A DNA stretch of 64,000 nt from positions 99,552 through 163,551 of the forward strand of contig CAZOXU010000001.1 of the NCBI GenBank assembly GCA_964583975.1, written 5' to 3'. Below are positions 15,146 to 64,000 of this stretch, piece after piece (the first letter of the stretch is position 1; each line of letters opens with the position of its first letter). The position numbers were made by a program, and so were the translations under genes. A model generated the notes under the pieces. The model was not told where the DNA came from and searched no databases. It worked only from the letters and a program-made list of their open reading frames with translations. The DNA comes from an uncultured Planctomycetales bacterium (GTDB lineage Bacteria > Omnitrophota > Gorgyraeia > Zapsychrales > Fredricksoniimonadaceae).

Positions 15146-15219
15146 ATGGTCTCCTAGGATTTTGAATGGCAATATTATGAATTTAATTCTTTGAATAAAC
15201 AAGCCAAATTTTTGCCATA

Positions 15220-27252: not shown

Positions 27253-27269
27253 ACTGTTTAAGACTCTCC

Positions 27270-44841: not shown

Positions 44842-45994
44842 TATTTTTCTTCGTATAAAAAGAACGTACTGTTTTGACCATATACTCCATCATCTCAGTG
44901 CTTAAATGTTGGTGTACTGGCAGGGTAATCATTGTACGGGCATCTTCTTCAGCCACAGGAAAATCGCCTTCTTTGTATCCCAGATAAGCCGATGCTTCTT
45001 GTAAATGCATCGCAATTGGATAATGAATCTTGGCGCGTATCTCATTCTTCAATAAATATTCTAAAAGTTGATCACGTTGTTTCACACGCAAGACATAAGT
45101 ATGATAAACCCACTTATAACCTGCAGGACGTTTAGGAACCTTGATAAAATCTCCTAAGTCTTTAAAAGCTTCATCGAGATAACGCGCATTTTCGATTCTC
45201 TTATCGGTAATCCAATGCACATCTTTGATCAGACGAAGACCAATAGCAGCATGGACAGAATCCAAACGACTGTTGTGCCCGAAGATTTTAATTTCTTCAC
45301 GGGTATTCATGCCGTGATTACGCAATAAACGTAAATGATCGCGCATTTCTTTGGAATTGGTCAGGATAATGCCACCATCTCCCCAGACATTTAAATTTTT
45401 CAAAGGATGTAAACTAAAACCAGCAGCTTCACCCCACATGCCAACATGTTTTCCATCAATGGCTGCCAAAATAGCCTGGGCCGCATCTTCGATGACCTTT
45501 AAGTTATGCTTCTTAGCAATGCGCATAATCTCGGGCATATCAGCAGGACATCCGCTTAAATGCACCGGCATAATGGCTTTGGTACGAGGTGTAATGGCCT
45601 TTTCAATTTGAGCAACATCAATGGTGTATCGTTCATTATTATCGACAAAGACCGGAGTGGCTCCGCACATGGCGATTGCACCAACGGTGGCCACAAATGT
45701 ATTGGCCGCAGTAATAACCTCATCACCTGGACCAATCCCGATAGCTTTTAAAGGCAAAATCAATGCATCTGTTCCAGAGCCAACACCAACGGCATAGGCG
45801 ACACCGGTTAATTTGGCAAACTGTTCTTCAAATTGGGTCACAGCCTCACCTAAAGTAAAGTCTCCTTTTAAAACCACCTTCTTGACCTCTGCGAGGTATT
45901 GATCGATATCAGCAAACTGCTCATTAAGATAGGAATATGGAACTTTCATGATGAACCTTTCATTTTTTATAAAACTCTTGCACACATTGGACAA
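44819..45994 (-). CDS. DegT-family sugar aminotransferase (tandem copy 1)
   Basis: 'YAVGVGSGTDALILPLKAIGIGPGDEVITAANTFVATVGAI' and 'KKHNLKVIEDAAQA'. Confidence 0.85.
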   Translation of the reverse strand: MSNVCKSFIKNERFIMKVPYSYLNEQFADIDQYLAEVKKVVLKGDFTLGEAVTQFEEQFAKLTGVAYAVGVGSGTDALILPLKAIGIGPGDEVITAANTFVATVGAIAMCGATPVFVDNNERYTIDVAQIEKAITPRTKAIMPVHLSGCPADMPEIMRIAKKHNLKVIEDAAQAILAAIDGKHVGMWGEAAGFSLHPLKNLNVWGDGGIILTNSKEMRDHLRLLRNHGMNTREEIKIFGHNSRLDSVHAAIGLRLIKDVHWITDKRIENARYLDEAFKDLGDFIKVPKRPAGYKWVYHTYVLRVKQRDQLLEYLLKNEIRAKIHYPIAMHLQEASAYLGYKEGDFPVAEEDARTMITLPVHQHLSTEMMEYMVKTVRSFYTKKNIAVAANA

Positions 45995-47075
45995 TATATT
46001 CCATTTGATCTTGGGTCAATTCTGGATAAATCGGAAGACTTAAAATTTTCTGAGATTGTTGTTCTGTAACAGGCAAATCTCCTTGTTTATACCCCAAATC
46101 ACTGGCAGCGGGTTGTAGATGCACAGGCACTGGATAATGAATTTTAGTCCCCACCCCTTTTTCAGCCAGATAAGCGCTTAACTCATCGCGCCGTTCAGCT
46201 TGAATAACAAAGGTATGATAAACAGCCTTTTCATGAGCTTGCTCAAGAGGAAATTTAATACAATTCGATTTAGCGAATGCTTGTTGATAAAACTTAGCAT
46301 TCTGAATTCTCTTGTCCGTCCACTGCTCGAAATGATCTAGCTTGACTAATAAGATGGCTGCTTGAATCGAATCCAAGCGAGAATTGCTACTCCAAGCAAC
46401 ACATTCACTACGGTTCTTCATTCCATTGTCGCGTAGAACTCTACACTTCTCATACACCTGTGTATCATTCGTCACCATCACGCCACCATCACCGCAAGCA
46501 TTGAGAGTTTTTAAAGGATGTAAACTAAAACACCCCACATCACCGAAACTTCCTACCTTCTGCCCCTTATATTCAGCGCCAACCGCTTGAGCACAATCTT
46601 CAATGACCTTCAAGTTATGTTTCTTGGCAATGCTCATAATGGCAGACATATCAGCAGGTCGGCCGGTTAAATGAACAGGTAAAATGGCCTTAGTTTTTTT
46701 CGTAAGGGCCTTTTCAATAAGCTGAGGATCAATATTATAATCACCTCGTACATCTACCAAGACTGGTCGAGCTCCAACAAGCGCAATACTGCTGATCGTT
46801 GAAACAAAGGTATTAGAGACACTAATGACTTCATCACCAGGTCCAATACCTAATGCTTTGAGCGCTAAAATAATGGCATCGGTACCGTTTCCAACCCCGA
46901 TGGCATACTTGGTTTTACAAAATTGAGCAAAGCGAGATTCAAATTCTTCAACTTCAGAGCCAAAAACAAAATGAGCATGATCAAATACACGTTCGACCGC
47001 AGCCACCAGTTGCTCTTTGAGTTGGGCATGCTGAAGGGCAAGATTGCTATAAGAAATTTTAGTAGCACATGTCAT
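45960..47075 (-). CDS. DegT-family sugar aminotransferase (tandem copy 2)
   Basis: 'YAIGVGNGTDAIILALKALGIGPGDEVISVSNTFVSTISSI' and 'KKHNLKVIEDCAQA'. Confidence 0.85.
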   Translation of the reverse strand: MTCATKISYSNLALQHAQLKEQLVAAVERVFDHAHFVFGSEVEEFESRFAQFCKTKYAIGVGNGTDAIILALKALGIGPGDEVISVSNTFVSTISSIALVGARPVLVDVRGDYNIDPQLIEKALTKKTKAILPVHLTGRPADMSAIMSIAKKHNLKVIEDCAQAVGAEYKGQKVGSFGDVGCFSLHPLKTLNACGDGGVMVTNDTQVYEKCRVLRDNGMKNRSECVAWSSNSRLDSIQAAILLVKLDHFEQWTDKRIQNAKFYQQAFAKSNCIKFPLEQAHEKAVYHTFVIQAERRDELSAYLAEKGVGTKIHYPVPVHLQPAASDLGYKQGDLPVTEQQSQKILSLPIYPELTQDQMEYIVQCVQEFYKK

Positions 47076-48073
47076 TTAAGAGTCGAGGCTTTCATAACTT
47101 TAATATTGAAATAACGATCTTCAGTCATCGAATTAGGAAGCTTGCCATCTTTAAAGGCGTTGACGAGATCTTTAACGGCATCTTCAATCGTATGCACAGG
47201 AACAAATCCTAATTCTTTTTTAATTTTCTCAGAAGAGACATGGTACGAACGATTATCATCGGTTGGTTCGGTCGCAATCACAATATTAGGATCGCCGATC
47301 ACATCCTTGACCATCTTAGCAATTTGACTGACCGTATGGTTTTCGTAACCTGCATTAAATGTTTTGCCAGCGATCTTTTCCTTAGGATATTCCAAACATT
47401 TCACATACAGATCGGTGATATCTTCAATATGAATATTAGGGCGTTTTTGCGCACCGCCAAAAACACGGATCTTACGATTATGGAAGCCATGATTAGTCAA
47501 AATATTCACGGTCAAATCCATGCGTTGACGAGTGGAGTATCCACAAACGGTGGCAGGTCGTAAAATAAGAACGGTAAAATCATCGGATTGATGTTCTAAA
47601 AGATAATCTTCGCATAAGGCTTTAAATTTAGAATAATCGGTCAATGGAAGGCGTTCCATATCTTCGGTAACATTCTCGACTTCCTTAACACCATAAACAC
47701 TCGAAGATGAGGCATAGATGAAACGTTTAACTTTATTCTTCTTAGAAATCTGAACGAGCGGCAAGAAAGCATCATAGTTAATCGATTTTCCTAAATCAGG
47801 ATTTAATTCAAAACTCGGATCATTGGAAATACAAGCCAGGTGAATAACGACATCGCTTCCTGGAATAGTTTTTTCCAAAAGGGCCACATCACGCATATCC
47901 CCTTTGATTTCGGTTAGATTAGGATGACCTTTTACCGAAGCTAACACATCATCGCCATAAATATACAGATCAAGTACCCTGACCTTATAACCCTTATTCA
48001 AAAGTTTAGGAACCAACATAGCTCCCACATAGCCTGCGCCACCTGTGACAAAAACAGTCTTTAACTCACTCAT
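47072..48073 (-). CDS. NAD-dependent epimerase/dehydratase family protein
   Basis: 'VFVTGGAGYVGAMLVPKL' and 'YSKFKALCEDY' (YxxxK). Confidence 0.8.
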   Translation of the reverse strand: MSELKTVFVTGGAGYVGAMLVPKLLNKGYKVRVLDLYIYGDDVLASVKGHPNLTEIKGDMRDVALLEKTIPGSDVVIHLACISNDPSFELNPDLGKSINYDAFLPLVQISKKNKVKRFIYASSSSVYGVKEVENVTEDMERLPLTDYSKFKALCEDYLLEHQSDDFTVLILRPATVCGYSTRQRMDLTVNILTNHGFHNRKIRVFGGAQKRPNIHIEDITDLYVKCLEYPKEKIAGKTFNAGYENHTVSQIAKMVKDVIGDPNIVIATEPTDDNRSYHVSSEKIKKELGFVPVHTIEDAVKDLVNAFKDGKLPNSMTEDRYFNIKVMKASTLK

Positions 48074-48093
48074 TTAAATCCTCCTACGGTAAA

Positions 48094-49626
48094 TTATTTT
48101 AATAATCTGGTGATAAATTTAATAAGATCGACGGATTTAACCGGCTCGCGATTACACACAATTTGTACCGCTAATGATCCGACCGCATTTCCAATTAGAG
48201 AAACAATTTCCTGCGGCAGCCTGGAAGCAAAACACGGAGCAATGAAGGCAAAAAAGGCATCGCCAGCTCCAATAGTATCAATGACATTATTCGAAAAAGC
48301 TGGGGTTTCATGAAATCCATGTTTTTTAGAATAGCAAATAGATCCTGCAGCCCCGCGCGTGGCAATAATATGCTCACAACCCATTTGTTCATACACCTTC
48401 TTGGCATGGCGCTTAAGATCACTGACTCGATCATGGGTAGCATAGCGTAGTTCCAATTCATCAACGCAAACACAATTGGCCCGACGATATTTGGTCACCA
48501 AGTTAAAACCGATGTTTGCACTATTGGTCTGCACATTTAAGGCCAAATATTTAGCCTTAGCTCCAATTAAATCACGGATTTTCTTGGTTAAAAATCCATG
48601 TCCAAAATCAGAAATGATGACTGCATCATAGTCTTTGATGACCTTATTCAAATGCTCCAGAACCTTCTTTTCTTCACGTTCAGCAATATCGGTATCATCA
48701 ATAAAACAGATCTCAAATAACTTACGATTATTGTCCTTGCTGACATATCTTCTTTTAACAATGGTCTCGGTGTCAGGACGGAAAAAGAATTTAGGTTTAA
48801 TATTGGAACTTAAACGCGATTCGATAAAGGCTTGATGAGATCTTTGTTCACCTAGGATGGTCACCAGATCTACTTTGCCGCAAACACTCGCAGCATTATT
48901 GGCTGTTGCCAAACTACCGCCCGCAAAAGCTTCTTTGGATTTATAACGATTGACCACTAAATGTTCCTTGGATGATTTTCCCATCGGTGTGCAATAGTGG
49001 TATTCATCGATAATCGTATCGCCAATGACCAATACTTTGAGCTTCTTTAAAGCTTCTAAGGACTGAATAATATAATCAATCGGATATCGCTTGGCCATGG
49101 CCCGCAGATACTTAACAGTCCGTGGTGGGTAAGCATCCAAATAATCATTGATCAATTTCGAAGAGCTAAAGGTGATATCATCAGTAATAAATAATTTCCC
49201 ACCCACCGCCTTAACAGCTTCTTCCTCTTCAAAGATCTTACCTGTAACGTCTTTTCCTTTAGCTCGGTAATCAGGACCTTTGGCATAGATATCAGGACGG
49301 ACCTTACGGATAAATTCGGTAGCTTCAGGAGCATCGACGATCGCTACGTAATCGGTGACTGACAAAGAGGCCAACGCTTCGGCACGCAAGCGACCTGTAA
49401 AATAGGGGCGGCCTGGTCCGCGTTTAACATATTTATCTTGAGTGACAGAAGTGATTAAAACATCACCTTGTTTTTTGGCTTGATTAAAGTGGCGGATATG
49501 TCCTAGGTGCACAATGTCAAATACACCATGACAAAGAACCACTCGTTTTCCTTTTTTCTTTAAATCTTCAACGATCTTGGCCAGCCTGGCTGGGGATTGT
49601 ATTTTTCTTAAAACTTTCTGGTCCAT
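48094..49626 (-). CDS. Bifunctional sugar-phosphate nucleotidyltransferase / PfkB-family sugar kinase (HldE-like, reversed domain order)
   Basis: N-terminal cytidylyltransferase-like 'VLCHGVFDIVHLGHIRHF' (HxGH). C-terminal PfkB kinase 'DTIGAGDAFFA'. Confidence 0.75.
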   Translation of the reverse strand: MDQKVLRKIQSPARLAKIVEDLKKKGKRVVLCHGVFDIVHLGHIRHFNQAKKQGDVLITSVTQDKYVKRGPGRPYFTGRLRAEALASLSVTDYVAIVDAPEATEFIRKVRPDIYAKGPDYRAKGKDVTGKIFEEEEAVKAVGGKLFITDDITFSSSKLINDYLDAYPPRTVKYLRAMAKRYPIDYIIQSLEALKKLKVLVIGDTIIDEYHYCTPMGKSSKEHLVVNRYKSKEAFAGGSLATANNAASVCGKVDLVTILGEQRSHQAFIESRLSSNIKPKFFFRPDTETIVKRRYVSKDNNRKLFEICFIDDTDIAEREEKKVLEHLNKVIKDYDAVIISDFGHGFLTKKIRDLIGAKAKYLALNVQTNSANIGFNLVTKYRRANCVCVDELELRYATHDRVSDLKRHAKKVYEQMGCEHIIATRGAAGSICYSKKHGFHETPAFSNNVIDTIGAGDAFFAFIAPCFASRLPQEIVSLIGNAVGSLAVQIVCNREPVKSVDLIKFITRLLK

Positions 49627-49629
49627 GTT

Positions 49630-50625
49630 TTACTTAACCAAATATTTAAACCAATCTTCAGTTGCCTTTTCGATAGTTTGAGGAGTCCAGACTGGAGCAT
49701 CCTTCCAATAATCAATATGTTTAAGAATTTCCTCTACGCCTTGCTCAAAAGAGATCTTGGGAGACCAACCGAGCACCGATTTGATTTTACGGATATCAGC
49801 CCAGGTGCAATCGGGTTCGCCAGGACGCTTAGGAATGTGAGTCTTCTCACCGCCTAACAAAGCGACCAGCTTATTAATGCTTTGAGCCTCGCCAGTTCCG
49901 ACATTAAAAATCTCATTTTTGACGGGTGAAAAAGCAGCAGCCACAATCGCACGGGCCACATCGGTGACAAAGGTAAAGTCGCGTGTCTGATTTCCATCAC
50001 CAACAATGGTGTAGGGTTTGCCATCGAGTTTCTGGGCTAAAAATACTCCAAACACCGCACCATAGGTTCCAGAAGTTCTGGAGCGTGGACCATAAACGTT
50101 AAAGAATCGCAAAGAAACCACTGGCACATCATAGACCTGTCCCCAATGAAGCAATGTCTGCTCTCCTAAATATTTCGTTAAAGCGTAAGGATATTGTGGA
50201 CTGATAGGTGCTGTTTCGGGAGTTGGATAATATTCTTTTGAAGGAATGCCATAACAAGACGATGAGGCGGCATAAACGATCTTTTGAACCTTGGCTAAAC
50301 GCGAAGCTTCAGCCACATTCATGGTTCCAAGCACATTGGATGCATAATACCCGCGAGGCTTAACGATCGAAGGAACAATGTCTGCTAAAGCAGCTATGTG
50401 AAAAACAATCTCCTGACCTTCAAAATAAGGGGCAATCAGATCAAAATTGGTAATATCAGCTTCAATAAGCTTGATATTTCCTTTTTGATGAGTCAAATTG
50501 CCCGGTCGGCCAGTGGAGAAATTATCAAGGACCGTGACCGTATGACCCGCTTCAACCAATTGATCGACCAAATGACTTCCAATAAAACCTGCCCCACCTG
50601 TAACTAAAACTCTCTTCTGACTCAT
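49630..50625 (-). CDS. NAD-dependent epimerase/dehydratase (candidate nucleotide-heptose or hexose epimerase)
   Basis: 'VLVTGGAGFIGSHLVDQL' and 'YALTKYLGE'. Confidence 0.8.
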   Translation of the reverse strand: MSQKRVLVTGGAGFIGSHLVDQLVEAGHTVTVLDNFSTGRPGNLTHQKGNIKLIEADITNFDLIAPYFEGQEIVFHIAALADIVPSIVKPRGYYASNVLGTMNVAEASRLAKVQKIVYAASSSCYGIPSKEYYPTPETAPISPQYPYALTKYLGEQTLLHWGQVYDVPVVSLRFFNVYGPRSRTSGTYGAVFGVFLAQKLDGKPYTIVGDGNQTRDFTFVTDVARAIVAAAFSPVKNEIFNVGTGEAQSINKLVALLGGEKTHIPKRPGEPDCTWADIRKIKSVLGWSPKISFEQGVEEILKHIDYWKDAPVWTPQTIEKATEDWFKYLVK

Positions 50626-51257
50626 TGGATTTCTTTCTTTAATTCCAGCATGAAGTAAGAAACAATCATGTGGTTTAGGATTAAATGGATATCTTCCACA
50701 GGGCCATATTCTCCCTTTTTGCTCTTAATATGGATGGTATAATCGCAAATTTGAGCCAAACGGCCGCCATCAAAACCAACTAAAGCTACGGTTTTACCTC
50801 CTCGTGATTTGGCTAATTCGACCGCCTTGATCACATTGGGGCTGTTGCCGCTCGCTGAGATAACGACTAAAACATCACCAGGATTAAAACTGTATTGAAT
50901 TTGGAGGGAAAATACATCTTCGTAGCTGTAATCATTGCTAATAGCGGTCAAGGCTGACACATTATCATTGATACTTAAGGTCCTAAAACCCTTACCCTGG
51001 ATCTTGCGTCCAACCTCGTTCATATCCTGGGAAAAATGTGAAGCAGTGGTAGCACTTCCCCCATTGCCTGCAAAATAAATAGTTTTATTGTTTTTTCTAG
51101 CTTCTAGGAAGCATTCGGCTACTTTTTGGACTGATTCGACATCTATTTCGGAGATAAGCTTTTGGAGATAATCCCCATATTTTTTAAAATAATTGGCTTG
51201 TAAACTGCTTTCCTTATAGATTTCTTCTAGGGTATTCATGGGCATCTCCTGTTTCAA
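50622..51257 (-). CDS. gmhA: SIS-domain sedoheptulose-7-phosphate isomerase
   Basis: 'IYFAGNGGSATTASHFSQDM' and 'ISASGNSPNVIKAVE'. The start is ambiguous: a TTG at 51257, or an ATG at 51245 or 51239. Confidence 0.8.
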   Translation of the reverse strand: MKQEMPMNTLEEIYKESSLQANYFKKYGDYLQKLISEIDVESVQKVAECFLEARKNNKTIYFAGNGGSATTASHFSQDMNEVGRKIQGKGFRTLSINDNVSALTAISNDYSYEDVFSLQIQYSFNPGDVLVVISASGNSPNVIKAVELAKSRGGKTVALVGFDGGRLAQICDYTIHIKSKKGEYGPVEDIHLILNHMIVSYFMLELKKEIQ

Positions 51258-51350
51258 GCTCGGTTAGAACTTCTTTGTATATAAGGGGTTGAGAGTTTAG
51301 AGTTCAATTTTTGAACATAATTATAAAAGAATAAGTTACCCTGTCAAGAA
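51258..51350 (-). promoter_or_regulatory. 93-bp intergenic spacer upstream of gmhA, candidate internal promoter
   Basis: One of the few gaps longer than 90 bp. It is AT-rich ('tataaaagaataag' region). No confident -35/-10 assignment was possible. Confidence 0.15.
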
Positions 51351-52199
51351 TTAACTCTTCGTCGGCATTGTCTCATAATCGGTGACTTTAACGCCACCCA
51401 CCCCACAACGGATAAACATCTGTTTTCCTACACTAAAAGGTACTCCTATTTTTTTGGTAGAAAAGAGCTTGGGAACATAACATTCTTCCACCCACCACAG
51501 CTGATATTTAAGACCTTTATGGAAGAAAAAAGCTCCTGGATAAGGTCGGGTCTGAGCTCGGACCCAATTATAAACCTTGCGAGCAGACCAGCCAAAGTCA
51601 ATCAAACCATCGCTTGGCACCCGTTTGCCGCAATAGCTGTGCTTATTCCAATCCTGCTTTTGTCGCTTAAGTCTACCTTGGGCAATATCGCTTAAGACCT
51701 TATTTAAAATAATAGGATAACGCGGACTCATGCGCTTAATCAAAGACCCACCTGTATCGGTATTGCTGATCGCTAATTTTTCCTGATAAAGAATATCGCC
51801 GGCATCAACCTCTTCGATCATTTCATGAACGGTAATCCCTGTTTCGATTTCATCATTGATAATGACCCATGTATTTGGCGTGCGCCCTCTATATCGAGGC
51901 AGCAGTGCATCATGAATATTGATCGCTAGCGGCGCTGCAGCTAAGACAGCCTTAGGAAGCAAGAACAAATAATTAAGAGATAAAAGCACATCCGCTTTTG
52001 GCATTTGGCGAGCGGCTAATTTCTTAGGCTTACCAACATACAATGGAATCCGTGACTCTTGGGCCCAATCGATAATCCCTTGAGAATCTTTATTCGTCCA
52101 CACGGCTGTAATGTTCCAGCGAGGATTTCGAGCCAAAGCTTTTAAACTGACTTCTCCCAAATGCCCTCCACAACAAATCCATAAGGATAATTTACGCAT
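51351..52199 (-). CDS. Sugar N-formyltransferase (Fmt/ArnA-N-domain family)
   Basis: 'NIHDALLPRYRGRTPNTWVIINDEIETGITVHEM..VDAGDI' formyl-transferase core. Confidence 0.75.
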   Translation of the reverse strand: MRKLSLWICCGGHLGEVSLKALARNPRWNITAVWTNKDSQGIIDWAQESRIPLYVGKPKKLAARQMPKADVLLSLNYLFLLPKAVLAAAPLAINIHDALLPRYRGRTPNTWVIINDEIETGITVHEMIEEVDAGDILYQEKLAISNTDTGGSLIKRMSPRYPIILNKVLSDIAQGRLKRQKQDWNKHSYCGKRVPSDGLIDFGWSARKVYNWVRAQTRPYPGAFFFHKGLKYQLWWVEECYVPKLFSTKKIGVPFSVGKQMFIRCGVGGVKVTDYETMPTKS

Positions 52200-52962
52200 G
52201 GCTGTCTCCTACTGGATCAGCCATCTCTACAAAAGCCTCGGCGAACTTCACTTGAGATTCATCGCCACGCATGGCTCCTAGCTTTTCAATGAATTCCACC
52301 GAACGAAAATCCGGATAAACGCGTCTTTCGCTTTCATAAGCAGCCAAGGCTTTTAATTTCAAGGCAAATGTCACGCTTACATCCACATAATGGTTAGGTT
52401 TAAAGGATTTTTGTCTTTCAGGTACCGACAAATAGGTCGATTCAGGGACTTCAAAATGCAACACGCGCGTATTGGCCTGTCCTGGTTTTGGTCGAAAAGC
52501 TGTCAATACCGAGCGGCAGACAATCTGATGGTCTAAATTCAGATCTCCCCAAAAATGCGTATAAACAATCGATGGTGATACGCGATTTTTAATGCTTTCA
52601 ATGCGCTTGATCACATCTAATAACAAGTATTGATCGAGCCGCTGATCTGCTAATTTCAAGAAAACAACATCTTCTTTCTTCAAACCTAATATAGTCGCAG
52701 CCTGACAGGCTTCCTTGGTACGCCGCTCGAGCCCCTGGCGATTTAACTCAAGTTCCTCTTGGCGAGATACCAGACGATCAGGATCATAGGTCCTCGAGGT
52801 TACTCCATCAGCCACCAATACCAACGTGACATGATCTCCAGCAGCCGCATGCTTGGCCATGGTAGCTCCGCAACCTAAAATTTCATCATCCGGATGAGCA
52901 GCGATAACTAAAATCTCTTTTGCCTTTGACATTTGCTTAACCTTTCTTAAGACGAGGCACAT
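52192..52962 (-). CDS. PIG-L/LmbE family deacetylase (second copy)
   Basis: 'ILVIAAHPDDEILGCGAT'. Confidence 0.8.
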   Translation of the reverse strand: MCLVLRKVKQMSKAKEILVIAAHPDDEILGCGATMAKHAAAGDHVTLVLVADGVTSRTYDPDRLVSRQEELELNRQGLERRTKEACQAATILGLKKEDVVFLKLADQRLDQYLLLDVIKRIESIKNRVSPSIVYTHFWGDLNLDHQIVCRSVLTAFRPKPGQANTRVLHFEVPESTYLSVPERQKSFKPNHYVDVSVTFALKLKALAAYESERRVYPDFRSVEFIEKLGAMRGDESQVKFAEAFVEMADPVGDSHA

Positions 52963-53650
52963 AACTACGGCCTTGATGTGTAATACAAATAAAATTCTGT
53001 AAATTAACAGCTGTTAAAACACCAAAACCTTCTGAAACAGGATATGTAGCTCCTGTATCGATACCCAATTTATAACCATCCCAAAAAGCTTGGCTGAATG
53101 ACGTATGTCCAAATACAACAATCTTGCCACGAAATTTTCTACGTACTGGCAGAAAATCCCGACGAGCAAAGACCATCTTTTCTAAATTACCAATGCGAAA
53201 TCGATTGCGACGATCTGATGGAATACCTCCATGCACTATAAAATAATCCTTGGTCTCATAATATGATCGTAACGACCGAAAAAAATTTAAATGTTTTTCT
53301 AGAAGTATTTTAAACGTCCCTTCTTTGATCATCTGCGCACATTGAACATCTGAAATCTTCTTGCCCAAATAACTTTCCAAAGTGTTTTTAAAACCATAAG
53401 CCATCATAAATTCCTGGGCTTGCTTGTGTCCTTCCCAAGCCTGCAGTAATTTAAATTCATGGTTGCCAATCAAACAGATGACATCGCGTCGCGCTTTAAG
53501 TTTAATAAGAAAATCAACAACAGCCTTAGAATCCTTGCCCTTATCAATGTAATCGCCTATAAAAATGAGACGCGCTTTAAGGGGAATTCTTTTAAGCAAG
53601 GCCTTTAACTTATCTATTTCGCCATGAATGTCCCCAATAACAAACTCCAT
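52937..53650 (-). CDS. Calcineurin-like metallophosphoesterase
   Basis: 'FVIGDIHGE', 'LIFIGDYIDKG', 'LIGNHEF'. Start set at the internal ATG 53648-53650; the track ORF runs to 53752 and overlaps the upstream gene. Confidence 0.65.
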   Translation of the reverse strand: MEFVIGDIHGEIDKLKALLKRIPLKARLIFIGDYIDKGKDSKAVVDFLIKLKARRDVICLIGNHEFKLLQAWEGHKQAQEFMMAYGFKNTLESYLGKKISDVQCAQMIKEGTFKILLEKHLNFFRSLRSYYETKDYFIVHGGIPSDRRNRFRIGNLEKMVFARRDFLPVRRKFRGKIVVFGHTSFSQAFWDGYKLGIDTGATYPVSEGFGVLTAVNLQNFICITHQGRSYVPRLKKG

Positions 53651-54552
53651 CAATGCAATTCCTCTAATAAACGCTTCAGGCCGCGGGCTCGACTTAAATT
53701 CCATGGTTTTAAATGCTTTTTTAACGCAGCAACGTCCATCGCACAAGGACAATAATCCTGTTGATTTAAAACGGTGACCTTGGATTTGGACTGATAATAG
53801 GTCTGCATCTGTTTTAACAATGCATTTAAATCCATGCGATCGCCATAACCGGCATTGAGGACACTAAATTTGCCATCCAAAGCAGGTTTATTCAATAATT
53901 TAACCAAAGTATGAACAGCATCTTGGACATTCATCACATCCCAATTACCCAAATTCTTGAGATCCAATGTAATGTCCTCATTGTTCTTAAACTTCTTGGC
54001 GGTGTTATACAGCATACCGTTTTTACGGCTGCCACCAAATAAACCAGGAAAGCGTACAACCAATCCGCTTTGGATATCCTTATTCGCACAAAATAAACGC
54101 AGGATCTGTTCGCCCCAGAGTTTGGATAAACCATAAAAATGTGAAGGATCTAAAGGAGTTGTATGTTGCAAACGACCCTTAGGAGGATTATTTTTATAGA
54201 CGGTCATTGAGGAAGCCAAGATAAATTTCTTAACTTGATTATCCTTAGCCCAATTAAGTACATTGTAGACTAACATCATATTGTAATTAAGAAGGTTCTG
54301 GACCTCTTGGCGATTATCGGTATTGATCTTAACCAAGGCGGCCAAATGGATGATCGCATCAACCTGACTTATTTGCCCCATGGACGTCGGCGATAACAAA
54401 TCACATGTTCTTTTCTTAAAACGTAAATGTGAAGGAGTATCTGAATCCCAACGACGGCTAACCCCAATCACTTTATGTTGGGTGTTTTCTAAAATGTATT
54501 GGACCATTTCTTTGCCTAAATAACCGTTAGCCCCTGTAATTAAGATATTCAT
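53650..54552 (-). CDS. NAD-dependent epimerase/dehydratase family protein
   Basis: 'MNILITGANGYLGKEMVQYIL' and 'YGLSKLWGE'. Confidence 0.75.
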   Translation of the reverse strand: MNILITGANGYLGKEMVQYILENTQHKVIGVSRRWDSDTPSHLRFKKRTCDLLSPTSMGQISQVDAIIHLAALVKINTDNRQEVQNLLNYNMMLVYNVLNWAKDNQVKKFILASSMTVYKNNPPKGRLQHTTPLDPSHFYGLSKLWGEQILRLFCANKDIQSGLVVRFPGLFGGSRKNGMLYNTAKKFKNNEDITLDLKNLGNWDVMNVQDAVHTLVKLLNKPALDGKFSVLNAGYGDRMDLNALLKQMQTYYQSKSKVTVLNQQDYCPCAMDVAALKKHLKPWNLSRARGLKRLLEELH

Positions 54553-55526
54553 AAGACTTTCTCCACAGGTACATAATGTTGTGACATGTATCGAAGCATG
54601 ACTAAATTTTCTTTAAAATGCAGCTTGCCTGGTTGTGAGATGCCTGAAAAATCTTTAATTAAACAGCCCACCTCATCAATTCCAGCCGCGATCGTATGCG
54701 CTACTGTAGTTGAAAAACGCGGATTGACTTCCAACACATATAACTTCTTAGCTTGCTGGATCAATTGCACATTAAATGGGCCTTGGGGATGAAATTCTTG
54801 TTGAATTTTCGATACTAACTGTTCAATAGGTTGATGACGCTCGGTCACTGACTGATAGGTAATCCCCTTTTTGGTAATGATTCGCTTTGGCACAACCGCA
54901 TACACATGATCCCTCTTTCCCACCACAGCACTGACGGTATACTCCTGGCCTTTAATGTACTCTTGCACCATCACATCTCGTTTCTGATACGAATGGTCTT
55001 TGAAATATTGCTGCCATTGTTGATAAGAACGGATCAATGCCACTCCACGACTGCCTCGGCCAACGATGGGTTTAATAATTTTTGGCGTTCTAAAGGATTG
55101 TTTATTAACATGCGATGGCAAAATGGTTGCAGGACAAGTAATCCCAGATGCTGAAAATTCTTTGACCATTTGATATTTATTTAATGTTAATTTTATAAAA
55201 TCCTCAGTTGGCGTGATGACTTTCAGGTTCTTAACCGACTTCTCTAAGCTCTTAGCACCAAGTAATTCTTCGTCAATCAAAGGAACATACACATCTATCT
55301 TATATTTTTGGATAATCTTCTTAACTTGATTCCAATAGCTGGCTGAATTTACAGATGGGACTACAATTCCACGATCAGCCATATATAAACCAACTGCATA
55401 TTTATTCATATCCAAAGCAGCAATCCAAAACCCTTTGGATTTGAGTTCCTTGATGATCTCAATAGTCCCTGCGCCACCGGCTCCTGAAATCAATACACGC
55501 ATCTGCTTCATTAAATGTTCTCCCAT
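54549..55526 (-). CDS. ATP-grasp domain protein (carboxylate-amine ligase type)
   Basis: 'MRVLISGAGGAGTIEIIKEL' pre-ATP-grasp region and 'YVLEVNPRFS' ATP-grasp C-terminal motif. Confidence 0.7.
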   Translation of the reverse strand: MGEHLMKQMRVLISGAGGAGTIEIIKELKSKGFWIAALDMNKYAVGLYMADRGIVVPSVNSASYWNQVKKIIQKYKIDVYVPLIDEELLGAKSLEKSVKNLKVITPTEDFIKLTLNKYQMVKEFSASGITCPATILPSHVNKQSFRTPKIIKPIVGRGSRGVALIRSYQQWQQYFKDHSYQKRDVMVQEYIKGQEYTVSAVVGKRDHVYAVVPKRIITKKGITYQSVTERHQPIEQLVSKIQQEFHPQGPFNVQLIQQAKKLYVLEVNPRFSTTVAHTIAAGIDEVGCLIKDFSGISQPGKLHFKENLVMLRYMSQHYVPVEKVL

Positions 55527-56548
55527 GTAATCGCAGTATCTTCTTCAATATCCACCTTGGATATTTTACCAATCACCTGATCTATAAACTTAGGCTTTAT
55601 CCCATATCCCGGTCTTTTAATTGTTAGCTTATCGGCCGTGATAACACTTCCCTTGGCAATATTGGCAGCTGCATGAATGCTGCGACGAGCCTTGGTAAAC
55701 ATTTCTTGTTCTTGCTTAGAAGGGCCATTTTTAACGCCATCGCCTAAGGCTGCCTCGACATCACGAATATATTCCACCATCTGCTTTAATTCATGCGGCT
55801 CGATGGCAAAAGGATGATCAGGTCCTTTTAATTTACGACTGATCGTAAAATGCTTTTCAATGACCTTGGCGCCCATGGCCACCGCAGCTGGTGCAATATG
55901 GACTCCTGGTGTATGATCGGATAAGCCTATCTCAACTTGAAATGCCTTTCGTAAAGTAGCCATGCTGTTTAAATTCATAATGGATGCTGGCGAAGGATAC
56001 ATCGAGGCGCACTGTAAAAGGATCAAATCTTTGTTTCGGGTTTTTTGCACAGCCTCAAAAGCATCCTGAATCTCTTCCATATTGCATAAACCTGTTGATA
56101 GGATGACTGGCTTTCCTTTGGCTGCCGCATAGGTAATCAGCGGCAGATCAACAATTTCAAAAGAAGCTAATTTAAAAAGAGGCAAACCTAATCGGTTAGC
56201 CAAATCTATATCTTCCTTCGATGTGACTGAACAAAAGAAAATAATACCAACCTTCTTGGCATAATCTCTTAGTTGCTCGACCCATTCTAAAGGAAGTTCA
56301 ATCTCTTTAAGCAAATCGACAATATTCTTCGTTATCCCTTGTTTGGCTAGGTATTCAAAAGGCGGTGTTTTACGTGAATAATGTTTTTCACCTGTAAACA
56401 ATTGAAATTTGACCGCATCCGCACCTGCGTCTTTAGCTGCATCGATGAGCTGACAGGCTAATTTGAAATCACGATTATGATTACTGCCTGCCTCGGCAAT
56501 AATAAAACAAGGATATTGGCCCCCTACATTCTTACCAGCAATCTTCAT
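55511..56548 (-). CDS. Nonulosonic acid synthase (NeuB/PseI/LegI family)
   Basis: 'CFIIAEAGSNHNRDFKLACQLIDAAKDAGADAVKFQ' plus a C-terminal SAF domain 'ITADKLTIKRPGYGIKP'. Confidence 0.85.
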   Translation of the reverse strand: MKIAGKNVGGQYPCFIIAEAGSNHNRDFKLACQLIDAAKDAGADAVKFQLFTGEKHYSRKTPPFEYLAKQGITKNIVDLLKEIELPLEWVEQLRDYAKKVGIIFFCSVTSKEDIDLANRLGLPLFKLASFEIVDLPLITYAAAKGKPVILSTGLCNMEEIQDAFEAVQKTRNKDLILLQCASMYPSPASIMNLNSMATLRKAFQVEIGLSDHTPGVHIAPAAVAMGAKVIEKHFTISRKLKGPDHPFAIEPHELKQMVEYIRDVEAALGDGVKNGPSKQEQEMFTKARRSIHAAANIAKGSVITADKLTIKRPGYGIKPKFIDQVIGKISKVDIEEDTAITWENI

Positions 56549-57588
56549 ATGGCTTCTCCTATCAAAACATCTAACATCTCATGGATCTTGGGACGCTTCA
56601 CACATTCATGCAATGACCGAGCCAGAGACTCTCTTAATGGAACATCATTAAATATCTTCTTAAGAGCAGTGGCCCAATCTTCTACAGATCTCTCATTAAA
56701 CCAGCCTAAGGAAACAATAGCCCCAATTTTATCAAGCTCTTCGATAATGCGTTGCTGATTATCAATCAAAATAATCCCAGCCAAAGGGGTTGATAGATGT
56801 GCATATTCCCAAACTGTACTGCCGCCTGCGCTAATGGCCACATCGGCCCATTGCATAAGTTCGGGCATCTGACGATGCACATTCTTGATAAGCTCCATAT
56901 CCAAAGAAGTCTTCTGTATAAAATCTCTGAGCGAAGCTTCATTTTTATTTAAATGACCAAAAACGATCTTTACCTTAAGCTTAGGATCCTTCAAAGAATC
57001 CAAGGCCTGCAAAACTTTTAAGGTCACATTATTAGGATCCACACCCCCTAAGGTAACCAAAACATGCTTAACCTCTGGGTTTATGACCCTACGAAAGCTT
57101 TTGGCTGCATCTAAGAAATCTCGACGGACTAAGGCATGTTCGGAACCTAAAAAGAAACGGGTATATTCTTCAGCTGTATACGCCTCGCGCTTAGCTCCAA
57201 AATTTTGATTCAAAACCATATCAGCCACATAATGACAAGAAGCCATATCATCAATACACAAAACTTTTAAACCAGCTTGCTTTAATGAGCGTTGATATTC
57301 TACTCCAAACAAATATCCGTCTAAAATCACCCATGTGGCTCGATATTGCTTAGCTAATTCAACCGTTTGCCGAGCATCTAGCATTGAGCCACGCTCGACA
57401 TTGGAGTGGATCGCTACTAATGCAAATCCTTCTTCTTCAATGCGACGTAGAAAATCTCGGTTATAGGCAATCGAATGAAAATAAGAAGTGACACCTTTTT
57501 GTTGCAATATTTGGGCTAAGGCAATACATCTAATGACATGCCCAATACCAATATGTTCTGCTGCATCTGTACGAATAATAACGTTCAT
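56545..57588 (-). CDS. PseG-like UDP-sugar hydrolase (UDP-2,4-diacetamido-2,4,6-trideoxy-hexose hydrolase family)
   Basis: 'MNVIIRTDAAEHIGIGHVIRCIALAQ' matches the PseG N-terminal signature. Confidence 0.7.
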   Translation of the reverse strand: MNVIIRTDAAEHIGIGHVIRCIALAQILQQKGVTSYFHSIAYNRDFLRRIEEEGFALVAIHSNVERGSMLDARQTVELAKQYRATWVILDGYLFGVEYQRSLKQAGLKVLCIDDMASCHYVADMVLNQNFGAKREAYTAEEYTRFFLGSEHALVRRDFLDAAKSFRRVINPEVKHVLVTLGGVDPNNVTLKVLQALDSLKDPKLKVKIVFGHLNKNEASLRDFIQKTSLDMELIKNVHRQMPELMQWADVAISAGGSTVWEYAHLSTPLAGIILIDNQQRIIEELDKIGAIVSLGWFNERSVEDWATALKKIFNDVPLRESLARSLHECVKRPKIHEMLDVLIGEAI

Positions 57589-59630
57589 AAGCTTGTATTG
57601 ATCGCCAATATTTTATCCTTGCCCCACATTTTAGCGTATCGCTCAGCTACATCAGCTAATACGATATCTCGATCTAGATTGGCTTTAAGTCCATCTCTAA
57701 CCCATTCTAAATATGTACCCATACGCTCGGCAGCTCTTCCATCTCTAAAAGGATCGATATCCTCGATCATGGCTGACCAATCCCCAAATCCAGGCCCACC
57801 AGACTTCCAATGGTCCTGGCAAGCTTGCCAAAGATCATTCCAATTTCTAAAAACAACACGACCTTCACCTAATTCATAGATAGGGCTCTTAGAACAGCCT
57901 TCTCGATCTAACATCAAGGTTGGCACGCCAGCTAAAGCAGATTCAACGCCGGCGGTAGCTCCAAAAAGATGTCCATGAATAGCAATATCCGAAGCCAAGG
58001 CGGCGATGGCTGGCGTATGCGAGCCAAAATGAAACTCACCCTCAGTAAATATATAGCATCGGCCGCTCGCTTGAGCGCGATCTAAAAGATCAGTAACGGG
58101 GCCTAATCTTCGGCGCAAGGTTGAACTGACCTTGGGCTTAAGTACCAGGCCAAGCGAAGGCGTATCTAAAACCTTCTTAAGTAAGAATTCATAATTCTCC
58201 TGGGTTATATTATGCCCTTCGACCCATCGCGGATCATCCGCCGTATTCTCATCAAAATAAGCCAGAATGCGATTAGCACCATGACTCATTAACTGCTCGC
58301 GGATCTGCAATGCTTCTTTTTTAACTAAAGGGAAACGGTAATCTCCCAAATAACCTGTGACCACATAATAAGGAATCAGAGAATCCTTGTCTTTCCCCAG
58401 ATGCGCGCCGAGCTTAGAAAAACCAAAAAATAAATCAGCCTTGGTGACCATCCATGGATTTGTATCACTTTCAAAAGACCTTTGATACATGGCGGATACT
58501 CCCCCAAGATCCTGCAAGGCATCAGCCATTGGAAAATATCTGGTTTCACTACGATACCAAGTGACATGCATCTTAATATTGTGTTTAGAAAAAAACTGAT
58601 ACCAATAATCTTTCTGTCTATAATATTCCACGATTTGGGTATTCAAATCTCGGCTGATATCATCCTGGTCTTTGGTATGAATAACAAAAACTTCTTCATG
58701 ATTGATTTTGCCATTGTAATGAAACAACGGAACCCGCGAAGAACTTGTAGCCCTGGGATTAAGAACTACGGCTGACATTCCATGGGTCTTGATTTCCGCC
58801 CATTTCTCATCAGAAAGCGGAAGTGGTGGATGCTGAAAATAAACTAAAACGTTCTTATTTAAGCTGTTATTAGTTTGGCAAAAAAATAAATCTGAATTCA
58901 GTTGGGGATAATCCAAATTAAGATGCCCGTAGAATTCCACAGCTATCTTAAGTGAATCGTTACTGGCCTCTTGCTGATCGCCCTGTGCCATTTTAGAAAT
59001 ATTCTGTTTAATTCCCACTGCTACAAACACGGCCTGCTTAAGAAAGTCTTTAATAAAATCCAATCGCATCATGATCTCTTTCCTACTAAAACGATGTCCG
59101 CCACGCATAGGAATAATATGCACATGGCGCGTAGCAGCCCATTTGGAAAGTTCAGACAGCCAAGGTCGCTTATAAGAATAAAGAAAGAAATTAATGGTTT
59201 GGGGTTCTTTGTGTTCTAAGCGAGCCACACGAAAGAGCATTAGAATACGCATCAATGTCACAGGGCTTGAATTAAAATATAAAATACGGCGCATGAGAAA
59301 TAACTTTAAGTGCTCTTGGGCTTCATGACTTTTGAAAATCTCCTGTAAAGCCGAATACTGTGACATATACTTCTGCACCTCGGCTAGATCCTCAAACATC
59401 ATGATCCACCAAAGAAAGTCACCCTTTTCATCCTTGGCATCAAAGAAAGTAAATTCTAAACGCTTAATCTCAATCTTAAAATTTTTAGCCATGGCCTGGG
59501 CCAACCACAGCCCTGGTCCGGAAGCATCCACATAATAGACAAGCGCGGATTCCGCTTTATGTTGGCGCTTAATTTCAGGAACAATAGATACGATCCACGA
59601 AAAAACTGTTAATTTCTCTACATAATACAC
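57585..59630 (-). CDS. Large hypothetical protein (681 aa), possibly a transferase
   Basis: No sharp motif. C-terminal 'HGHLFGATAGVESALAGVPTLMLDREG'. Co-directional with a 4-nt overlap. Confidence 0.45.
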   Translation of the reverse strand: MYYVEKLTVFSWIVSIVPEIKRQHKAESALVYYVDASGPGLWLAQAMAKNFKIEIKRLEFTFFDAKDEKGDFLWWIMMFEDLAEVQKYMSQYSALQEIFKSHEAQEHLKLFLMRRILYFNSSPVTLMRILMLFRVARLEHKEPQTINFFLYSYKRPWLSELSKWAATRHVHIIPMRGGHRFSRKEIMMRLDFIKDFLKQAVFVAVGIKQNISKMAQGDQQEASNDSLKIAVEFYGHLNLDYPQLNSDLFFCQTNNSLNKNVLVYFQHPPLPLSDEKWAEIKTHGMSAVVLNPRATSSSRVPLFHYNGKINHEEVFVIHTKDQDDISRDLNTQIVEYYRQKDYWYQFFSKHNIKMHVTWYRSETRYFPMADALQDLGGVSAMYQRSFESDTNPWMVTKADLFFGFSKLGAHLGKDKDSLIPYYVVTGYLGDYRFPLVKKEALQIREQLMSHGANRILAYFDENTADDPRWVEGHNITQENYEFLLKKVLDTPSLGLVLKPKVSSTLRRRLGPVTDLLDRAQASGRCYIFTEGEFHFGSHTPAIAALASDIAIHGHLFGATAGVESALAGVPTLMLDREGCSKSPIYELGEGRVVFRNWNDLWQACQDHWKSGGPGFGDWSAMIEDIDPFRDGRAAERMGTYLEWVRDGLKANLDRDIVLADVAERYAKMWGKDKILAINTSL

Positions 59631-62960: not shown

Positions 62961-64000
62961 TTAATCTAACTCAAACTCTTTCTGCCATTCAACATGGTCT
63001 TCAAACTTCGGTTGTTGTTTTCTATATAGTAAAAAATTTCCCAAAACCAAAACATCCATGTTCGTACGCATAAAACATGTATAGGCCTGTTCGGGAGATT
63101 CGACAATGGGTTCGCCTCTAACGTTGAAAGATGTATTGATCAACATAGGGCATTGGGTTTTCTCATAAAAACTTTTTAATAACTGGTAGAACAAAGGGCT
63201 TTGCCGGGCTGATACAGTCTGAAGACGCGCTGAGTAATCCACATGCGTGATAGCAGGAACTTCTGAGCGAATGCTATTAAGCTTACTTAAACCTTGAAGC
63301 TTTGCCTCTTCAGCTGATAAGGCACGACAACGTTCTTTTTTGACATTCACTACGGTCAACATATAGGGACTTTTAGCATCGATCTCAAACCAGTCTCCCA
63401 CCTTCTCTTGCATAATTGCTGGAGCAAACGGACGAAAACTTTCGCGAAATTTAATTTTTAGGTTCATCGTCTTTTGCATTTGAGTCGAACGCGGATCCCC
63501 TAAGATCGATCGACCTCCCAAGGCACGTGGGCCAAACTCCATACGACCTGAGAACCAACCAACCACCATCTCTTTGGTTAGCAAATCGGCCACCCGATCG
63601 ACCAAGGCAGCATCGTCATATCGTTCATACACTGCACCTTCTTTTTTTAAATACGCTTCGATAGCAGCATTATCGTGCGAAGATCCCAAATAAGATCCTC
63701 TTTGCAAATCTTCACCATTCTTAGGGGGTAATTGTCCTTTAAAATAATGGCAATGGGCCATGTAGGCTGCACCTAACGAACCGCCTGAGTCACCCGAAGC
63801 TGGCTGGATCCAGATATCATCAAATATTTTGGATTTCAAAATCTTGCCGTTAATTACACAATTTAAAGCAACCCCTCCTGACAAACATAGATAGCGTTCC
63901 TGAGTCACTTGTCTTATATGCTTAACCATGCGCATGACAATTTCTTCCGAAACAACTTGGATCGATTTAGCTAAGTCCATGTCTCGCTGCGTTAATTTTG
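62961..64000 (-). CDS. Carbamoyltransferase, NodU/CmcH family (5'-truncated at the window edge)
   Basis: 'LCLSGGVALNCVINGKI...IWIQPASGDSGGSLGAAY' Kae1-like core. The reading frame stays open upstream of the ATG at 63980 to the end of the window. Confidence 0.8.
   Translation of the reverse strand, partial: KLTQRDMDLAKSIQVVSEEIVMRMVKHIRQVTQERYLCLSGGVALNCVINGKILKSKIFDDIWIQPASGDSGGSLGAAYMAHCHYFKGQLPPKNGEDLQRGSYLGSSHDNAAIEAYLKKEGAVYERYDDAALVDRVADLLTKEMVVGWFSGRMEFGPRALGGRSILGDPRSTQMQKTMNLKIKFRESFRPFAPAIMQEKVGDWFEIDAKSPYMLTVVNVKKERCRALSAEEAKLQGLSKLNSIRSEVPAITHVDYSARLQTVSARQSPLFYQLLKSFYEKTQCPMLINTSFNVRGEPIVESPEQAYTCFMRTNMDVLVLGNFLLYRKQQPKFEDHVEWQKEFELD

Follow-up and report, generated by a model that had tools for sequence, protein, structure and literature searches.

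Seven adjacent open reading frames (ORFs) at 51351-57588, on the minus strand of a 64 kb window (the whole stretch of DNA analysed here, 64,000 nucleotides of contig CAZOXU010000001.1 from an uncultured bacterium of the Omnitrophota lineage), form a nonulosonic acid module. Sequence comparison suggests, with moderate confidence, that this module directs the synthesis of a pseudaminic acid (Pse)-type nonulosonate with formyl on N7 and, on N5, a remodelled acyl group added via a phosphorylated intermediate. The genes would represent the late half of a Pse-type pathway to a 5,7-diamino-3,5,7,9-tetradeoxy-nonulosonate, to which an add-on for N-acyl remodelling has been joined. From the first gene to the last, the cassette comprises:

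56545..57588, minus strand: PseG-family uridine diphosphate (UDP)-sugar hydrolase of GT-B fold, first cassette gene (TIGR03590 239.6 bits, cut-off 153.55; Pfam Glyco_tran_28_C)
55511..56548, minus strand: NeuB-family nonulosonate synthase, condensing with phosphoenolpyruvate (PEP) (PF03102 E 1e-86, plus SAF; non-canonical clade)
54549..55526, minus strand: ATP-grasp carboxylate-amine ligase, PylC/PurT/PurK-like (Pfam ATP-grasp_3, ATPgrasp_Ter, PylC-like_N)
53650..54552, minus strand: extended short-chain dehydrogenase/reductase (SDR), GalE/L-threonine-dehydrogenase-like (PF01370 E 5e-32)
52937..53650, minus strand: PPP-type metallophosphoesterase, ApaH/PrpE-like, in the phosphatase slot (PF00149 E 6e-16, with ApaH-like matches)
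52192..52962, minus strand: LmbE/PIG-L zinc de-N-acetylase (PF02585 E 1.5e-25; AHPDDE motif)
51351..52199, minus strand: two-domain ArnA/Fmt-like N-formyltransferase, last cassette gene, in the PseH slot (Formyl_trans_N E 1.4e-23, Formyl_trans_C E 8.7e-11)

ORFs were scored against Pfam and NCBIfam, with the NCBIfam equivalog cut-offs serving as the criterion of membership, and these matches, all well above what chance would give, confirm the seven families that a preliminary description of the DNA had named in one run. Each gene shares 4-16 bp with the next or is separated from it by hardly any gap, and the start of the PseG gene, an equivalog by TIGR03590, overlaps by 4 bp the stop of an upstream gene for a 681-amino acid (aa) protein. 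The ATP-grasp protein has the fold of the carboxylate-amine ligases with a pre-ATP-grasp N domain, and the SDR displays GxxGxxG and YxxxK motifs. Although the metallophosphoesterase ORF reaches 53752, Met35 at 53650 is the likely true start, which overlaps the SDR stop; the protein carries GDIHG, GDYIDKG and GNHE motifs. The de-N-acetylase is assigned by its PIG-L domain and AHPDDE metal motif; it matches BshB and MshB distantly and scores below the BshB, MshB and Mca cut-offs, so it is none of those enzymes. Sequence searches of the PDB with the SDR, the metallophosphoesterase and LmbE returned generic relatives only, those of the SDR being nucleoside diphosphate (NDP)-sugar 4-epimerases and L-threonine 3-dehydrogenases. 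A second LmbE paralogue is encoded at 9285-9983 on the minus strand, 42 kb downstream (E 2e-31 against the LmbE of the cassette).

The ATP-grasp, SDR, phosphatase and LmbE genes make up a four-gene add-on that lies between or beside PseG and a NeuB-family synthase in 26 species-level loci. These loci, labelled L001, L002 and so on, were recovered from other genomes and contigs by searching one genome per species with aligned ATP-grasp homologues, a set outside which the window's own genome falls. The window proteins were then mapped onto them, together with the Pse enzymes named by the Prokaryotic Genome Annotation Pipeline (PGAP) on a Klebsiella pneumoniae plasmid (NZ_CP055164, L086), the canonical Pse reference. 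The gene order is ATP-grasp, usually SDR, phosphatase and then LmbE, with the SDR following ATP-grasp in nearly all cases. ATP-grasp and LmbE occur together in every cassette locus, and PseB and PseC homologues are present in most. The window itself has the add-on, in the same gene order as L002, L012, L022, L031, L035, L041, L054, L057, L067 and L090. Bacterial hosts include Omnitrophota, Planctomycetia, Verrucomicrobia, Nitrospiraceae, Vicinamibacterales, Syntrophaceae, Desulfobacteraceae, Bacteriovoracaceae, Bacteroidetes, Campylobacterales, Bacillaceae, Clostridia, Dehalococcoidales and Collierbacteria; two hosts are archaea (Methanoregula and one unclassified archaeon). As the cassette genes recur in the same order in unrelated phyla, they are a functional unit rather than a chance juxtaposition.

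In Nocardiopsis and actinomycete genera related to it, roughly 45 further loci hold the ATP-grasp gene without a synthase; LmbE is nearby in some, and the context is a different one. In a dozen actinomycete loci (within the range L030-L082) LmbE lies ~2.5 kb from ATP-grasp, and on a plasmid of Halorussus lipolyticus (L091) ATP-grasp adjoins a HAD hydrolase in a glycan cluster that has no nonulosonate synthase. The logic of deacetylase, ligase and phosphatase may thus extend to other amino sugars. A search of plasmids with the ATP-grasp protein gave matches at ≤30% identity only. Literature searches combining ATP-grasp, LmbE or metallophosphoesterase with pseudaminic or nonulosonic acid returned no description of the add-on, and, widespread as it is in microbes, we could not find the four-gene unit described as such in the literature searched.

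The gene after the SDR is a metallophosphoesterase in 11 of the 26 loci, as it is in the window and in L090. In 14 others it encodes a protein of the inositol-monophosphatase (IMPase) family, assigned by Pfam for five loci (E 1e-35 to 1e-40) and by phmmer for the rest, while an archaeal locus (L003) has a HAD hydrolase here (E 2.7e-26). None of the 26 has two of these three families and none lacks all of them. The pattern amounts to non-orthologous displacement among three unrelated phosphohydrolase superfamilies in one position. Because the slot is always filled, and by unrelated superfamilies, a dephosphorylation step looks integral to the add-on. The preliminary description had listed the metallophosphoesterase correctly but gave neither it nor the SDR a role. 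The phosphatase was also considered as a GmhB substitute for the heptose-type genes downstream; this was rejected, as it travels with ATP-grasp where heptose genes are absent.

In the proposed pathway, PseB and PseC, encoded outside the window, would first make UDP-4-amino-4,6-dideoxy-beta-L-AltNAc. The ArnA-like formyltransferase, standing in PseH's place, would N-formylate the 4-amino group that becomes N7 of the product, a reaction known for PseJ. PseG, by its family, would then remove UDP, and the NeuB-family synthase would condense the free sugar, presumably of this kind, with PEP. At some stage, LmbE would remove the acetyl group derived from N-acetylglucosamine (GlcNAc), at N5 of the product, and the ATP-grasp ligase would attach a carboxylic acid, probably a phosphorylated one, to the amine so exposed. 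The phosphatase would take off that phosphate and the SDR would adjust the acyl group or the sugar. The result would be a Pse-type sugar with a 7-N-formyl and a 5-N-(non-acetyl acyl) group. Its activation with cytidine monophosphate (CMP) would fall to an enzyme encoded beyond the window, and its transfer possibly to the adjacent GT-B protein.

The canonical PseBCHGIF pathway of Campylobacter jejuni and Helicobacter pylori provides the frame for this scheme. Like it, the window has PseG followed by a NeuB-family synthase, and related loci include PseB, PseC and PseH. Unlike it, the window lacks PseH, PseB, PseC and PseF, its synthase falls outside the PseI clade, four genes (ATP-grasp, SDR, phosphatase and LmbE) are inserted, and a formyltransferase occupies the position of PseH.

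The role of the formyltransferase is best seen in the closest relative of the window, a metagenome contig (L090) whose NeuB, ATP-grasp, SDR, metallophosphoesterase and LmbE are 82%, 73%, 67%, 72% and 54% identical to those of the window. Where the window encodes the formyltransferase, this contig encodes a 182-aa GNAT protein that scores as a PseH equivalog with 116.6 bits (cut-off 93.1), and the GNAT in the same slot of L002, a Campylobacterales metagenome-assembled genome (MAG), is a PseH equivalog as well (117.3 bits). Other loci fill the slot with short formyltransferases of 220-260 aa. Within the window, queries of the PseH type found no homologue anywhere in the 64 kb, and no ORF of at least 150 aa has a GNAT Pfam domain or qualifies as PseH. 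Since PseH equivalogs hold its slot in L090 and L002, the formyltransferase is taken as a PseH substitute, most likely N-formylating the PseC-made 4-amino group that becomes N7. That amine is already free, so formylation there needs no prior deacetylation. LmbE then most likely pairs with ATP-grasp in swapping the other N-acyl group, and the fusion of LmbE to a GNAT in L001 supports a coupling of deacetylation to re-acylation.

By sequence, the formyltransferase belongs to the ArnA/Fmt-type enzymes dependent on N10-formyl-tetrahydrofolate, with both N and C domains and the catalytic residues. Its best solved relative is the formyltransferase domain of ArnA (E 3e-31), an enzyme that formylates a UDP-beta-L-4-amino sugar. 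The segments NIH...LLPRYRGR and VDAGD align with the catalytic Asn, His and Asp of ArnA (N102, H104 and D140). A substitution of the kind proposed here has a precedent in PseJ, a formyltransferase that stands in for PseH and yields Pse5Ac7Fo (PMC11040635). The window enzyme resembles PseJ in its place within the pathway and in its predicted reaction, but it has two domains and is ArnA/Fmt-like while PseJ has a single domain; the short formyltransferase genes of L012, L022 and L031 are PseJ-like in size.

In the preliminary description, LmbE and the formyltransferase were read together as de-N-acetylation followed by N-formylation. Formylation is indeed plausible, but the order of both steps on one nitrogen sits poorly with the PseH equivalogs in the slot. 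Such a scheme, with LmbE deacetylating and the formyltransferase re-formylating the same amine to give a 5-N-formyl sugar, a GNAT encoded elsewhere performing the PseH step and ATP-grasp adding a further decoration, seems unlikely. It would fit the adjacency of the two genes, which overlap by 8 bp, and the presence of both a GNAT and a formyltransferase in L012, L057 and L002. It would also fit the nonulosonate cluster of Ca. Kuenenia stuttgartiensis, where a deacetylase and a formyltransferase accompany legB, legC and legG (SugarBase preprint, 10.64898/2026.04.20.719630). However, the identical slot in L090 and L002 belongs to PseH, the window holds no PseH-type GNAT homologue for the step that the scheme leaves vacant, and LmbE is universal among the 26 loci whereas a formyltransferase lies within the cassette in only 9. 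Moreover, the CMP-nonulosonates of Ca. Kuenenia carry one free amine and one formamide (10.64898/2026.04.20.719630), that is, the modifications are on different nitrogens. In the window as in Kuenenia, genes for a deacetylase and a formyltransferase lie within a nonulosonate cluster; the two differ in that the Kuenenia cluster is of the legionaminic acid (Leg) type and has no reported ATP-grasp, phosphatase and SDR add-on. The Kuenenia product lends experimental support to deacetylation and formylation on different nitrogens, so this part of the present proposal is less novel.

For re-acylation, the preferred reading relies on the ATP-grasp protein. Its AlphaFold2 model (predicted local distance difference test score, pLDDT, 93.8) matches PurK, PurT, PylC and others with a Foldseek probability of 1.0; further matches include 2pn1, biotin carboxylase and L-amino-acid ligases, and PurK and PurT are the top matches with a known function. 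The pairing with LmbE recalls mycothiol and bacillithiol synthesis, in which an LmbE deacetylase (MshB or BshB) is followed by an ATP-dependent ligase (MshC or BshC). The cassette follows the same logic of N-deacetylation of an amino sugar by LmbE and then ATP-dependent ligation of an acid, an analogy rather than membership: the ligase is an ATP-grasp enzyme instead of one resembling Cys-tRNA synthetase, the sugar is different, and LmbE scores far below the family cut-offs. A second parallel comes from the HS:2 capsule of C. jejuni, where the ATP-grasp enzyme Cj1438C ligates either serinol phosphate or ethanolamine phosphate, after which Cj1435, a phosphatase, dephosphorylates the product (PMC11800379). 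Like Cj1438C and Cj1435, the cassette combines a predicted ATP-grasp amide ligase with a dedicated phosphatase, which offers a precedent for a phosphorylated co-substrate. Unlike in the present proposal, the sugar supplies the carboxylate and the co-substrate the amine in that system; Cj1438C is TupA-like, and the comparison was made by description only. Both formylation and ATP-dependent amide decoration of the nonulosonate, as suggested in the preliminary description, are plausible.

The Campylobacter pair could also be used to argue that LmbE leaves a free, positively charged amine while ATP-grasp, phosphatase and SDR act elsewhere, by amidating the C1 carboxylate with a phosphorylated amine or decorating a hydroxyl. 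The one documented glycan pair of ATP-grasp and phosphatase that was found does amidate a sugar carboxylate with serinol phosphate or ethanolamine phosphate, and the Kuenenia sugars, with a free amine beside a formamide, point the same way. This is nevertheless an improbable account of the window. CMP activation of nonulosonates normally requires a free C1 carboxylate. In addition, ATP-grasp and LmbE keep company both in every cassette locus and in some synthase-free loci of the Nocardiopsis type, which suggests one coupled unit that deacetylates and then ligates.

Several observations tell against the reading of the module as a 7-N-formylating Pse-type pathway with a phosphorylated acyl intermediate. 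The synthase scores below both relevant cut-offs, with 357.9 bits for NeuB_NnaB (TIGR03569, cut-off 399.65) and 327.5 for PseI (TIGR03586, cut-off 340.25). Being non-canonical, and with its nearest solved structure in SpsE, an enzyme of legionaminic acid synthesis in Bacillus subtilis, it leaves the stereochemistry uncertain. The formyltransferase matches PseJ (6ci2, 6ci4) at E 2.5e-8 and 36 bits and does not belong to the PseJ type; that it does the same job as PseJ is read solely from the position of its gene. PseG ORFs elsewhere run on into a GNAT (as in K. pneumoniae pseG) or a formyltransferase, which supports an exchange of PseH for a formyltransferase, but the composites were taken from stop-to-stop ORFs rather than gene by gene. 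The substrate is assumed, since PseB, PseC and PseF are absent from the window. PseG may even be dispensable in this lineage, because an AP_endonuc_2 protein (a xylose-isomerase-like TIM barrel) replaces it in the two closest relatives, L090 (575-1351, 258 aa) and L087 (12087-12866), the latter a Ca. Omnitrophota MAG; this protein is either a replacement of the UDP-sugar hydrolase or part of a different route to the free sugar. Finally, with PurK and PurT as its nearest structural matches, ATP-grasp could use a very small acid, in which case the phosphatase would have to be explained differently.

The placement of the synthase bears on the sugar backbone. Among solved structures it scores highest with B. 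subtilis SpsE (228 bits), followed by a C. jejuni-type PseI (8h2c, 210) and the NeuB of Neisseria meningitidis (NmNeuB, 147). In a neighbour-joining tree of 50 synthases with 100 bootstraps, the reference PseI sequences (8h2c, the PGAP pseI and the PseI of L087, which scores 485 bits) group without the window synthase in 100/100 replicates, so it is not a member of the PseI clade. It sits instead in a 28-member clade from which canonical PseI is excluded in 89/100 replicates and from which SpsE is excluded as well in the base tree. Both synthase clades occur inside the same type of cassette, with PseG, PseB and PseC. Members of the window's clade adjoin PseC and PseB-like dehydratases of the inverting type, the latter 54-60% identical to a Campylobacterales PseB, and include the synthases of L090 and L002, whose loci carry PseH equivalogs. 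L087 has PseB and PseC equivalogs, but its own synthase is canonical PseI. The PseH equivalogs of L090 and L002 and the PseB and PseC equivalogs of L087 favour a Pse-type backbone.

That the backbone is instead Leg-type, or another stereoisomer, built through a UDP-linked route like that of SpsM, SpsC, SpsD, SpsG and SpsE in B. subtilis, is a doubtful alternative. The window synthase resembles that route in having SpsE as its best solved match and, by assumption, UDP-linked precursors, and SpsG is presumably PseG-like. Further in its favour, the NeuB_NnaB score exceeds the PseI score, the clade of the window excludes canonical PseI, and SpsG and SpsE do make legionaminic acid in B. subtilis (PMC7439481). 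Yet the clade shuts out SpsE too, and its members keep company with inverting-type dehydratases and PseC; the relatives of the window carry PseB, PseC and PseH equivalogs and not SpsM, SpsC and SpsD. The Leg pathway proper is absent from the window, in which no UDP-GlcNAc 2-epimerase gene was found and scores on the models for LegB and LegC fall far short of the cut-offs.

An N-acetylneuraminic acid (Neu5Ac) module was also considered and rejected: the window contains no gene of the NeuC or NeuA type, and its synthase has little similarity to NmNeuB and misses the NeuB equivalog cut-off. The preliminary description had predicted a non-standard 5,7-diamino nonulosonate rather than Neu5Ac, and the presence of PseG and the NeuB_NnaB score agree with this. 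The outcome that it had named as refuting, a NeuB homologue in the Neu5Ac clade with neuA and neuC nearby, was not found when the phylogenetic placement it called for was carried out.

Least probable is that ATP-grasp acts like PurT or PurK, N-formylating or N-carboxylating the amine freed by LmbE to yield a 5,7-di-N-formyl sugar: PurK uses bicarbonate and PurT formate, the two head the structural matches of known function and NCBIfam adds weak PurT and PurK matches, but identity to both is 16-21%, PylC and L-amino-acid ligases score almost as well, and the universally conserved phosphatase and the SDR are left unexplained.

The remaining steps of the Pse-type pathway would be encoded elsewhere, as the preliminary description had anticipated, for no PseB, PseC or PseF equivalog occurs in the window. 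Its suggestion that nearby DegT copies and a KdsB-like gene supply them is unlikely to hold. The three DegT proteins of the window score 211-272 against a PseC cut-off of 423.5, and the best SDR reaches 46 bits on the PseB model (cut-off 407.75). The nearby DegT genes were rejected as the missing PseC because they are part of a separate, conserved heptose-type block. This block, directly downstream of the cassette, comprises SIS, SDR, HldE-like, SDR, DegT and DegT genes that are 60-86% identical in relatives whatever their nonulosonate cassette. In L090, the SIS, SDR and HldE-like proteins are 83%, 84% and 86% identical to those of the window. The only CTP_transf_3 protein of the window passes the KdsB cut-offs and is a KdsB equivalog, and so was rejected as the missing CMP-transferase.

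The cassette is bounded by two features:

57585..59630, minus strand: 681-aa protein (U681) of a GT-B-fold family without description, upstream of PseG (no Pfam or NCBIfam match)
51320..51347, minus strand: sigma-70 consensus promoter TTGACA-16-TATAAT (12/12 match), in the only intergenic gap, right after the formyltransferase stop and before the SIS gene

The promoter is kept after different last cassette genes, at 14383-14411 in L087 and at ~6230-6260 in L090, and so marks both a recombination and a transcription boundary downstream of the cassette. This conservation makes the cassette a swappable unit between the 681-aa protein and the promoter-led block. In L087, the same flanks enclose only AP_endonuc_2, canonical PseI and a GNAT, which shows the four-gene add-on to be separable. 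With flanks 82-86% identical to those of its relatives, the source organism is probably akin to Omnitrophota. PseB, PseC and a CTP_transf_3 gene lie directly upstream of the 681-aa gene in L087, whereas the window has two proteins without assignment and a carbamoyltransferase fragment there, followed by its edge. The carbamoyltransferase ORF (62961-63980, minus strand) starts ~20 bp inside that edge and encodes only the C domain and the ~70 residues that end the N domain, being truncated, frameshifted or split.

The 681-aa protein has 253 homologues, and all source names shown read 'hypothetical' or 'uncharacterized'. Its AlphaFold2 model (pLDDT 84) resembles HepE, MurG, 2-epimerases, a polysialyltransferase and PseG in Foldseek comparisons. 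Homologues adjoin nonulosonate synthase modules in L009, L012, L035, L087 and L089, from several phyla, and the homologue in L090 is 71% identical over the C-terminal 184 residues, where the contig begins. On the strength of the model and these neighbourhoods, the family is a candidate for a nonulosonate transferase. The protein U665 was rejected as a paralogue of U681, to which it has no similarity. In L089 (JGI 3300025173, a contig of 159.9 kb), the 681-aa homologue is preceded by SDR, methyltransferase, metallophosphoesterase, ATP-grasp and GNAT genes and followed by genes for an AMP-binding ligase, a mannitol-dehydrogenase-like protein, an IMPase, a 77-aa protein, NeuB, a glyoxalase and PIG-L. 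This variant points to hypervariable nonulosonate tailoring in the lineage.

How pseudaminic and legionaminic acids vary in their N-acyl groups affects immune recognition, susceptibility to phages and surface charge. The enzymes that install most such N-acyl groups are largely unknown (PMC5378307, PMC11040635). The window and its relatives define a portable and widely distributed four-gene add-on with clear boundaries and an unexpected, apparently obligatory phosphatase step. They also provide natural swap variants: PseH is exchanged for a formyltransferase and PseG for a TIM-barrel protein, and the add-on is present in some cassettes and missing from others. Annotators gain a rule by which non-acetyl nonulosonates can be predicted from genome sequence. 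A bolder proposal, and a rather speculative one, is that the add-on is the missing enzymology for hydroxyacyl or aminoacyl N-substituents on the sialic-acid-like sugars of bacteria, and a general, modular route in bacteria and archaea that would deacetylate, ligate a phospho-acid and dephosphorylate. As proposed, LmbE would free the amine, ATP-grasp would ligate a phosphorylated metabolite, for instance a phosphoglycerate or a phospho-hydroxy-amino acid, and an obligatory phosphatase from any of the three superfamilies would unmask the group. Targets of such a route could include the N-glyceroyl group of Tannerella Pse5Am7Gra and the di-O-methylglyceroyl Pse of Campylobacter; the Tannerella papers leave the genes that lie between pseH and pseG without names.

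The surrounding window is a giant locus for glycan biosynthesis. Its 58 ORFs of 150 aa or more share the minus strand and have ends that mostly overlap or abut, at a G+C content of ~39-41%; GC skew is negative across 1-64000 in every 2 kb step. Glycosyltransferases, a Wzy-like protein, an ATP-binding cassette (ABC) exporter and many methyltransferases are encoded, along with RmlA, RmlB, KdsB and genes for sulfotransferase activity and the synthesis of 3'-phosphoadenosine 5'-phosphosulfate (PAPS).

The block at 41382-51257 (minus strand) encodes a GmhA-like SIS protein, an SDR, an HldE-like protein whose nucleotidyltransferase domain is N-terminal to the kinase domain, a second SDR and two DegT aminotransferases. 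It also encodes a 213-aa protein with weak similarity to HAD proteins, an APH-type kinase and a split transketolase, and its identity is 60-86% in L087, L088 and L090. This set of genes has the appearance of a route to either an NDP-amino-deoxy-heptose or a sugar with an extended chain.

The sulfur genes (25900-29483, 40852-41379 and 11909-12652, all on the minus strand) encode a 737-aa fusion of pyruvate-kinase barrel, PUA and ATP-sulfurylase, an adenosine 5'-phosphosulfate (APS) kinase, a sulfotransferase with tetratricopeptide repeats (TPR) and an IMPase/CysQ-like protein. They suggest a local supply and recycling of PAPS for glycan sulfation. In L001, the same pyruvate-kinase/ATP-sulfurylase fusion, APS kinase and sulfotransferase lie beside the NeuB homologue. 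A trio at 13580-17012 (minus strand) encodes a GFO/IDH oxidoreductase, a CTP_transf_3 protein and a B12-radical-SAM protein, and resembles the set of radical-SAM, GFO/IDH, cytidylyltransferase and Aminotran_3 genes found between PseC and PseG in L009, L012 and L031.

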